Shown one piece after another: positions 9,001-11,684 of a stretch of 11,684 bases of DNA. Every line of letters starts with the position of its first letter. Within the stretch, counting starts at the first letter, position 1. The position numbers were made by a program. The stretch lies in IMG/VR virus record IMGVR_UViG_2713896786_000008; one strand, written 5' to 3'. This DNA comes from a virus (Duplodnaviria > Heunggongvirae > Uroviricota > Caudoviricetes).

Positions 9001-11684
9001 TGAAAAGGCCAGGCTGGCGCAGGAGAGCGCCGGAGAGATCCTTAAGCGGGCAGAGGCTGCCACTGTCAGTGCTGAAGAGGCCAGACGTATGGCTGAGAAT
9101 GCACGGGGGCCCCGGGGGCCTCAGGGAGAAACTGGTCCGAAGGGGGATGTCGGTCCTAAAGGCGAAACAGGTCCAGTGGGCCCTCAAGGGCCCGCAGGGC
9201 CGAAAGGTGAGCGTGGTGACGTTGGTGCTCAGGGGGCTGTAGGGCCCGCTGGTCCGCGTGGTGAGAAGGGCGAACAGGGGGAGCGAGGACCGCAGGGAAT
9301 ACCAGGCCTGAAGGGGGATACCGGAGAGCGGGGGCCTAAAGGGGACCAGGGGGATATGGGGCCAAAAGGCGAGAAAGGTGATCCGGGAGGTCCTGCAGGC
9401 CCGCAAGGTCCTAAAGGTGAACGAGGAGAAGCCGGACCACAGGGACCGATGGGAGCACGAGGTGAGCGTGGGGAGACTGGCCCCCGAGGTGAACCAGGTC
9501 CTGCAGGTCCGAGAGGCGAACGAGGAGAGACCGGACCTCAGGGACCTCGTGGAGAGCCAGGTCCGGCAGGCAGCGCTGCAAATGTGGCTGATGCGACGAC
9601 GGCACAGAAGGGAATTGTGCAGTTAAGCAGCGCAACGGACAGTGATGATGAAGCGAAGGCAGCCACCCCGAAAGCGGTGAAAGCGGCAATGGATGTGGCA
9701 AATGAAGCGAAAACAAAGGCAGAAGAGGCTGCAGCAGGAGGTGGTGTTCCCGGTCCGAAAGGAGATAAAGGGGACTCGGGGCCAGCAGGTCCGGCTGGGC
9801 CGAGGGGCGTTCAGGGACCGAAAGGTGATCCCGGCCCCCAGGGACCAAAGGGGGATACTGGCGCTGCTGGGGCAAAGGGTGAGAAAGGAGCCACCGGCGC
9901 AACCGGGCCACAGGGACCTAAAGGGGATACGGGAGCCGCAGGCCCGGCAGGACCGCAGGGACCTAAAGGGGATACGGGAGCTGCAGGCCCGGCAGGCGCA
10001 CAGGGACCAAAAGGTGACAAAGGCGATCCGGGGGTGGCTGGACCAGCAGGTCCGGCAGGTGCGCCGGGGCCGAAAGGCGATAAAGGTGATCCGGGAGTAG
10101 CAGGTCCAGCAGGTCCGGAAGGGCCGCAGGGACCGAAGGGAGACACTGGAGCCCCCGGGCAAGGAACAGAACTGCTTACTACTGCCAATACATGGACTCA
10201 GGCACAAACTTTTAATGGTGGTATTAATGGAAATTTGACGGTAAACGGAAACGGATCATTTAACGATGTTCAGATCCGCTCGGATAAACGCAACAAGCGA
10301 AATCTGGTAAAACTGGATAATGCGTTAGATCGTCTGGAGGCACTTACTGGTTATCTTTACGAGATACAGTACTCTGCCGACGGTTGGCAAACGTCGGTTG
10401 GTTTAATTGCTCAGGATGCACAAAAAGCCTTGCCTGAACTGGTAACTGAAGACGCAGACGTTATATCTGGTGAAAAACGTCTGCGTCTTAACTACAACGG
10501 CATAATTGCATTGTTAGTCGAAGGCTTTAAAACACTTCGTCATGAGATTAAAGAACTCCGGGAGAAGTAAACGACAGCTGTTGTAGTTTCTGGTTTCTAC
10601 TGAATTTAAATTGTGGGGATGATACTCACCTCACGAATTTCAGAAGGATATATGAAATGGGGATAACATCGGGATGGGTAGGTTCTTCGGCTAAGAGCGA
10701 AACAGGTGAGCAATGGATGGGGGCTGCTGGCACTAAACTAGGATTGGATAAACCTTTTATGATGAGTCAAATGGTGGGGCGAGCTATGGGTTGTAAAATA
10801 GAAACCGCTTACTATAAATGGAACTCTTCGGATCAAGTTGAAAACTGGGGGGCGGTTGGAGCTGATTGGCCATTAGAAGAAAAAAGCAAAGGGACAATTA
10901 CAAACGCTGAAAACTGTGGTTCTGGGAGACTGGTGGGGGCTGTCGTTACACTTTCTCACTTTTTGACGAACTCTACACCGACAGCTGCTGTTTATTTATC
11001 CGGTGGTAAAGCAGGTAACATCACCGTAAACGTAGGTGGTGCTACACAAACCATGATTTATCAGGGCGTTGTTAGTGGGTTCCAGTATTACTGGTCAGGT
11101 TCTGTTAGTTCCGCTTTCGTGGAGGCAATGAAAAAGACGGGAGTAACCCAGGATCTAAAAATTAGTTAAATGGTAAATGAATAATTTTAAAAACTTCACG
11201 TTCTACATACCGGAGACGCCGGATATATAGGATATTGTTTTAAGTTGCCAGAGAAATTTTTCCGGACGGATGCTGATAATAATGATGTAATTTTTCAAGA
11301 TTTCTGGAAATCTGTATTCTGCACAGGCGCAATTGTATGCCGCCTTTAAAACTTCAATTCAGTGACTCACCTGCCATTCAAATTTTCGGATACCAGACAA
11401 CCATGCCTTATATCGATATAACAACTATGCGCGGGATGATGCCAGGCGTTATTGCATCTATGCTGCCAGATCATTCTGCTGTACTGGCAGAAAACTGTCA
11501 TTTTCGCTATGGAGTGATCACGCCTGAACACCAGATGTCAGAGGCTGAGAAAACATTCGCGATTAAGCCGAAAACCATTTTTCATTACCGTGACGATTTC
11601 TGGTTTGCATGGACGGATGTAGTGGATGTGATCCGCAGTCCGATCGCTCAGGACCCCCACGGGCGTATTTACTACACTGACGGG

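Follow-up and report, generated by a model that had tools for sequence, protein, structure and literature searches.

Very probably a tail nozzle gene: the open frame at the end of a Stx2a-phage late module and the AT-rich recombination seam in front of it

We describe the 3′ end of an 11,684-nucleotide (nt) stretch of viral DNA (IMG/VR record IMGVR_UViG_2713896786_000008; hereafter ‘the window’), where an AT-rich gap is followed by an open reading frame (ORF) that runs past the last base. We hold with high confidence that the conserved tail nozzle gene of a Shiga-toxin (Stx) phage begins in this ORF, and that the gap is a recombination seam. An earlier note, made from the sequence alone, had read the ORF and the gene before the gap as a possible two-gene cargo locus, with the alternative that the ORF might be a tail gene resuming after a moron; the cargo reading is rejected here, and the tail-gene alternative accepted. 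The window is the late structural module of a Stx2a podophage of Escherichia coli O104:H4, of the P13374 type (Oslovirus); its bases 10571–11684 are 100% identical to Escherichia phage P13374 and other Stx2a phages of O104:H4 strains, and 99.7–99.9% identical to the Shigella phages Ss-VASD and 75/02 Stx and to phi191. The features at the centre of the argument are these:

11403–11684, + strand: tail nozzle gene, first 94 of 541 codons, running past the end of the window; identified by identity to WP_001391593.1 and by similarity to 8JOV_A and PHROG families
11403–11582, + strand: diverged 5′ allele of the nozzle gene, 77–82% identical to phage 933W in 60-nt blocks
11337–11402, + strand: 22-codon in-frame upstream extension (MPPLKLQFSDSPAIQIFGYQTT), most likely untranslated, with no homology to 933W or phi24B, overlapping a ykgJ relic

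The complete gene is found in the closed chromosome of the O104:H4 strain 2011C-3493, where it measures 1626 nt and encodes 541 amino acids (aa; WP_001391593.1), residues 1–94 of which are encoded in the window at 100% identity. A word-indexed protein search with the 116-aa fragment obtained by reading the frame from its first ATG returned 15 short partial proteins only; the homologue lengths given below come from a search with the full-length orthologue. This 116-aa reading matches PHROG 17680 (E 2.3e-52, from residue 23) and PHROG 511 (E 2e-42, from residue 19). In phmmer searches of the PDB, with E below 0.001 taken as significant, the window’s 94 residues match chain A of entry 8JOV (E 7.5e-6; residues 4–91 to 4–87), one further match up to E 1 being ascribed to chance (E 0.35), and the 933W protein L0124 has the same chain as its sole match up to E 1 (E 8.6e-54; query residues 30–503 to chain residues 4–460). 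Entry 8JOV, made up of six chains, bears the title ‘Portal-tail complex of phage GP4’ in the fold-search library; its chain A (‘Virion-associated phage protein’) is the nozzle of this Ralstonia phage, and our protein is homologous to it from residue 4 to about residue 475, including the N-terminal 90 residues that lie in the window. No family for the nozzle protein was found in Pfam, NCBIfam or PADLOC.

The gene order runs from terminase, portal and capsid through an SU10-type adaptor, a collagen-like lateral fibre and gp38 to the nozzle and the tail-tip/needle gene, such that the ORF stands after the adaptor and lateral fibre and directly before the needle/tail-tip fibre gene; the latter has a Phage_Tail_Tip domain, and its start overlaps the nozzle stop by 4 nt. 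Coverage reached 80% or more in 363 of the 368 phage records in which tblastn detected the nozzle protein. These records take in all short-tailed Stx phages together with Vibrio, Ralstonia (GP4-like), Burkholderia, Klebsiella, Erwinia and other phages; 187 Stx-type records match at 80% identity or above. The flagged ORF was found in every related Stx phage, and only the material upstream of 11403 varies. The cargo reading is not supported, because the full-length protein matches a standard tail protein that is conserved in all related phages, an outcome that the earlier note had itself set against cargo.

The structural role is taken from the orthologue in phage phi24B. A 2026 electron cryo-microscopy (cryo-EM) preprint describes the phi24B tail as a dodecameric portal (gp72), adaptor rings of gp64 and gp62, and a hexameric nozzle (gp57, reported from cryo-EM and proteomics), with six lateral fibres (gp61) and a trimeric needle (gp56) that sits in the nozzle lumen and is lost on DNA release, and it gives 29% identity (E 2.9e-53) between gp57 and the GP4 nozzle (bioRxiv 10.64898/2026.04.10.717836). 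A count through the gene annotations of HM208303, starting at gp72 (portal) and ending at gp47 (2811 aa), leads us to infer that gp57 is vb_24B_39, gp56 is vb_24B_40 and gp61 is the ‘tail spike’; the first of these is supported because the E value obtained here matches that reported in the preprint. The vb_24B_39 protein is identical to 933W L0124 at 539 of 541 positions and to the O104:H4 protein at 516 of 541 (82 of 94 in the window part), and in phi24B and 933W (Sepvirinae) this orthologue is flanked, as here, by the lateral-fibre region and the needle gene. The GP4 nozzle is more distant (23% identity in the Foldseek alignment), and GP4, according to the phi24B preprint, differs in its three kinds of fibres and in its set of peripheral proteins.

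An AlphaFold2 model of a 97%-identical homologue (25 homologues in the alignment) has a mean predicted local distance difference test (pLDDT) score of 59.9, with residues 121–540 reaching moderate values only. All of the top ten Foldseek matches of this low-confidence model in the PDB are portal–tail or tail complexes from short-tailed phages, namely those of GP4, Pa223, VP1, cyanophage A4, SU10, crAss001 and P22, at template modelling (TM) scores of about 0.2–0.27. Those other than GP4 take ranks 2–10 at about 10% identity with no detectable sequence similarity, and what they share with our protein is a resemblance through that model, not membership of its family. The matched chains would be β-propeller proteins of the nozzle or hub (gp10 in P22, the nozzle in SU10, the muzzle in crAss001); a separate likeness to SU10 is that the adaptor upstream in the window matches Pfam SU10_adaptor.

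Some of these observations weigh against a nozzle assignment. The pLDDT falls below 50 for residues 1–120, exactly the part encoded in the window, and fold-level support therefore covers only the rest of the protein; the TM-scores are low (about 0.27), so that the modelled fold would be consistent with a nozzle but is weak evidence for one; the equation of gp57 with vb_24B_39 comes from a gene count and an E-value match, with no accession from the preprint; and both PHROG 511 and the RefSeq record NC_018846 label the family ‘internal virion protein’, in conflict with the cryo-EM assignment. Read literally, this label would make the product an internal virion (ejection) protein packed in the head, and it recurs in Vibrio and Erwinia phage records. 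We regard that as extremely unlikely, since the homologous chain is modelled in the external portal–tail complex of GP4, in six copies, and since phi24B gp57 was resolved as the hexameric nozzle, the ejection protein proposed there being the 2811-aa gp47. The label, which two virion structures contradict, is probably a misnomer; sequence, synteny and conservation all make the feature a member of the GP4/phi24B nozzle family. In RefSeq the label on D300_gp67 (NC_018846.1, 12767–14257) comes from PHROGs, as it does in many Vibrio and Erwinia records.

To the reading of the two adjacent genes as accessory cargo (toxin/immunity, defence or effector) at a tail-module hotspot we attach practically no probability. 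It could appeal to the absence of a Pfam family across most of either protein, and to the variability of the fibre-to-nozzle interval among related prophages; against this, the first gene encodes a Gp38-type fibre adhesin (see below), and the second a nozzle that is kept in all short-tailed Stx phages and in GP4-like phages, is not patchy among collinear relatives, and has as its phi24B orthologue a stoichiometric virion component. PADLOC returned no match for the nozzle, the 116-aa fragment or the Gp38-like protein, and no defence or toxin family in Pfam or NCBIfam matched the nozzle or the Gp38-like protein. Something of the proposed hotspot survives, in that the interval does vary among related prophages and holds dead relics; the flagged ORF itself lies outside the variable material.

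That the frame is coding is shown by the pattern of its divergence from 933W. Across 11403–11684 there are 38 differences, 28 of them at third codon positions, and the nozzle frame shows 23 synonymous against 12 non-synonymous codons, compared with 4/30 and 5/28 in the other two frames; the frame is under purifying selection, because third-position and synonymous changes prevail in it.

Where translation begins is a finer point, for which we refer to comparison loci by label (L001 is NC_018846.1, phage P13374; L005 is an E. coli SHP24 prophage; L011 is E. coli UCPROB-002; L009 carries the ES5 pseudogene). The earlier note was right that the frame is open for 116 codons from ATG 11337 to base 11684; the preceding in-frame stop is TGA 11283–11285, and the frame is open from 11286. 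We nonetheless place the start, with good confidence, at ATG 11403 (MPYIDITTMRG...), such that 94 of the 116 codons belong to the gene and the untranslated gap grows to 233 nt at 36.9% guanine-plus-cytosine (GC). DNA homology to 933W and phi24B starts exactly at this ATG. Among the matches listed, most homologues in E. coli, Salmonella and Citrobacter are 541–543 aa long, and the alignment with the GP4 nozzle begins at residue 4 of both that nozzle and the short form. The Prokaryotic Genome Annotation Pipeline (PGAP) uses the 11403 equivalent in four RefSeq chromosomes inspected, and in a fifth, NMBU-W12E19, where it calls a gene of 1626 nt, alignment puts the start at the same ATG. Finally, L008 and L009 share the proximal leader, carry other upstream modules, and have no in-frame start upstream of the conserved ATG.

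The competing start, ATG 11337, would add a 22-residue N-terminal extension and yield a 563-aa protein, as in the GenBank records of P13374 and phiSTEC1589, whose annotators chose it, and in others. It gains from the weak Shine–Dalgarno sequence in front of 11403 (TTCGGATACCAGACAACC-ATG, where 933W has AAGGAA) and from the retention of ATG 11337 in L001, L003, L004 and L007; the poor ribosome-binding site and the presence of this in-frame upstream ATG both count against our choice and make it a probable start in this lineage. A start at 11337 is, however, unlikely: besides the comparisons above, the extension would overlap a minus-strand ykgJ relic, within which ATG 11337 itself falls. Several GenBank records of the P13374 lineage probably begin the nozzle gene 22 codons too early.

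The gap consists largely of dead gene fragments, and is a seam between two recombination modules, not a regulatory unit. Its parts are as follows:

11170–11241, no strand assigned: 3′ flank travelling with the adhesin cassette, 93–100% shared with gp38-bearing prophages that have no nozzle gene (L005 among them)
11242–11289, + strand: 16-codon relic (KLPEKFFRTDADNNDV) of a DUF4376-domain gene
11294–11348, − strand: degenerate 3′-end relic of a ykgJ-family (cysteine-cluster) gene, by local alignment to the ES5 pseudogene
11371–11402, + strand: conserved 32-nt proximal leader, common to L003, L007, L008, L009 and L010 despite different upstream modules

On the adhesin side, bases 9887–11288, which run from the fibre C-terminus with its S74 domain through the 170-aa gene to a point 119 nt past it, are 90–93% identical to a cassette in the unrelated SHP24 prophage (L005). 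This homology stops at 11288, and from 11287/11288 onwards the sequence is nozzle-linked, with 99% identity in phiSTEC1589 and 96% in JNEC-KY176. The DUF4376 relic has the same translation, KLPEKFFRTDADNNDV, as the first 16 codons of a 5′-truncated DUF4376 pseudogene in L005, and L007, whose DUF4376 protein is intact, has the matching motif GKLPEAFFWTDAENNDV. The ykgJ-like relic aligns to the ES5 pseudogene (L009, 1288–1341) with a local score of 33, against 16.1 ± 2.3 for shuffled sequences, none of 500 shuffles reaching 33; its minus-strand translation AAYNCACAEYRFPEI resembles EACNRAREKYGFPKI with its stop. E. coli NMBU-W12E19 has the same gp38-to-nozzle arrangement, with a 629-nt gap in which both pseudogene fragments are annotated. 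A plausible kind of source for the relics is a prophage end of the type seen in L011 (1–3552), where a lambdoid prophage ends, beside tRNA-Ser, in an intact ykgJ-family gene on the opposite strand; before this gene come a DUF4376 gene, one that is YadA-like (Eib-type) and one that is hypothetical.

The AT-richness that drew attention to the gap is real (11170–11336 spans 167 nt at 34.7% GC, compared with 52.2% for the entire window), and low GC in an intergenic gap is ordinary. We consider it very unlikely that the gap holds an independent promoter, active for instance in lysogens, that drives the nozzle, the needle and the downstream lom-type genes apart from the late operon, as the earlier note had allowed. 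In its favour are the low GC (34.7–36.9%), a near-consensus −10 element (GATAAT, 11275–11280), and an annotation note that downstream morons such as lom are expressed in lysogens. However, the same GATAAT sits inside the DUF4376 relic; TTGCCA (11245–11250) is 24 nt away from it, as had already been seen, and the best −35 element at 17-nt spacing is GAGAAA, with three of six matches. A consensus scan of the + strand of the gap, at 16–18 nt spacing, found no sigma-70-like pair, and promoter-like sites in 10400–11684 number one, against 2.3 in shuffles. Nor is the gap conserved, since the gaps of relatives are unrelated to it (78–629 nt and 41–46% GC in the six related prophages compared) and the last 32 nt alone (11371–11402) are common to all of the non-933W arrangements examined. 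This leader presumably holds the weak ribosome-binding region.

Further scans agree with a gap devoid of regulatory elements of the kinds searched for: a terminator scan of 10400–11684 gave one site, inside a coding region and at a chance-level rate; Rfam gave no meaningful match on the gap region (one at E 0.95, in the coding part); RNA folding of the gap showed no unusual structure (z = −0.07 against shuffles); and a repeat search produced short two-copy matches only, none of them meaningful. In lambdoid and Stx phages the morphogenesis genes lie on a long late transcript that starts at pR′ under Q antitermination. By analogy, the nozzle gene would be read on such a transcript, and with read-through from pR′ the gap would need no promoter of its own and any terminators would be overridden.

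The gene before the gap, which the earlier note had called an ORFan, has recognisable relatives:

10657–11169, + strand: Gp38-type tail-fibre adhesin gene, 170 aa, part of the swapped host-range cassette

Starting 86 nt after the fibre gene, it encodes a protein whose residues 1–40 match Pfam Gp38_N (PF21721; E 3.1e-20, above the cut-off) and whose entire length matches PHROG 1121, ‘tail fiber adhesin’ (E 4.9e-63), and RefSeq names the product ‘receptor recognizing protein Gp38’; it is thus a Gp38_N adhesin that follows a fibre gene. With T-even Gp38 it shares the N-terminal fibre-attachment domain; beyond residue 40 it matches the adhesin PHROG and no Pfam domain, and at 170 aa it is much shorter than the Gp38 of the T2/S16 type. 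The interval from the fibre C-terminus to the nozzle start thus serves this phage as its host-range cassette. Its place is taken in 933W and phi24B by another fibre end together with L0122 and L0123, which stand where the Gp38 cassette stands here, and the leader and ribosome-binding region there are unrelated to ours.

The pairing of a Gp38-type adhesin with an S74-chaperone fibre is unusual in a short-tailed Stx phage. The lateral fibre (8522–10570) is itself composite, with a prophage tail-fibre N-terminal domain, four collagen-repeat stretches (65–69% GC), a Phage_fiber_2 repeat and, at the C-terminus, a Peptidase_S74 domain that is an intramolecular chaperone. Its homology to 933W stops at about 10034, in the collagen repeats, which may form the left recombination joint of the cassette.

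Mosaicism extends into the nozzle gene. The first 60 codons are diverged from 933W and phi24B (about 80% nt identity, compared with mostly at least 97% downstream), and the joint lies near 11583, beyond which identity to 933W is 93–100%, and at least 97% in most 60-nt blocks. A second dip, to 82–85%, occurs around codons 320–380, outside the window, and of the 15 residues that differ from the common E. coli form (P0016), 14 fall within residues 1–85; one structural gene is here a patchwork of alleles.

We see only a slim chance that the diverged codons encode an altered nozzle-tip surface which, with the swapped Gp38 cassette, might change the needle-release trigger or the host range. In phi24B the needle contact lies on the nozzle tip domains, near a loop numbered 47–57 (bioRxiv 10.64898/2026.04.10.717836). 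The first 120 phi24B residues hold no R...L pair at the spacing of the published Arg47–Leu57, in either numbering. Co-variation of the 5′ allele with the gp38 cassette was considered and rejected, as the allele also occurs with three other upstream modules (L003, L008 and L009), which argues against co-selection with the cassette.

Drawing this together, we propose a working model. Six copies of the nozzle protein would form the distal tube of the short tail, below the second (gp62-type) adaptor ring, and their lumen would be plugged by a needle trimer that makes limited contact with the nozzle tip domains and leaves on DNA ejection, both by extension from the phi24B orthologue. Translation most likely begins at ATG 11403, and the gap joins a cassette of fibre C-terminus, S74 domain, Gp38, 3′ flank and DUF4376 relic, ending at 11288, to a nozzle leader with its ykgJ-like relic.

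The remaining genes of the window are those of a late structural module:

119–1825: large terminase gene
1825–3969: P22-type portal gene
4127–5134: 335-aa gene, function not assigned
5158–6372: major capsid protein gene
between the capsid gene and the adaptor: small virion protein genes
7875–8525: SU10-type adaptor gene (Pfam SU10_adaptor)
8522–10570: collagen-like lateral tail fibre gene with C-terminal S74 chaperone domain

Three matters of record deserve mention. A run of 86 N (masked or unknown bases) at 8726–8811, within the lateral fibre gene, gives X in translation and a false GC dip at 8601–8900 of the composition profile. At 7204–7875, a mechanical ORF list has a 223-aa ORF with a GTG start that overlaps the preceding 162-aa gene (6840–7328) by 125 nt; RefSeq annotates in its place a shorter, 187-aa ‘virion structural protein’, which by the gene count corresponds to phi24B gp64, the neck adaptor. 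In the P13374 record (HE664024/NC_018846.1, 14202–14218) a T run is five long, one short of the T6 seen in 933W, phi24B, phiSTEC1589 and the closed O104:H4 chromosome; its nozzle gene is thereby divided between ORF67 (496 aa) and ORF68 (54 aa), while P13803 has the 541 aa undivided. A homopolymer sequencing error in the record probably accounts for this 1-nt frameshift towards the 3′ end.

For this phage family, earlier work already covers the gene, the genes around it and the structural role of its product, and the rest is known or follows from published work; as ordinary phage structural DNA, the window holds little meaning for discovery. For annotation, the nozzle family is without a Pfam or NCBIfam model, and RefSeq entries named ‘hypothetical protein’ or ‘internal virion protein’ could become ‘tail nozzle protein’. 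For the biology of these phages, the gap is a small and clear example of the exchange of host-range cassettes between long-tailed and short-tailed lambdoid prophages, with relics left at the seam.

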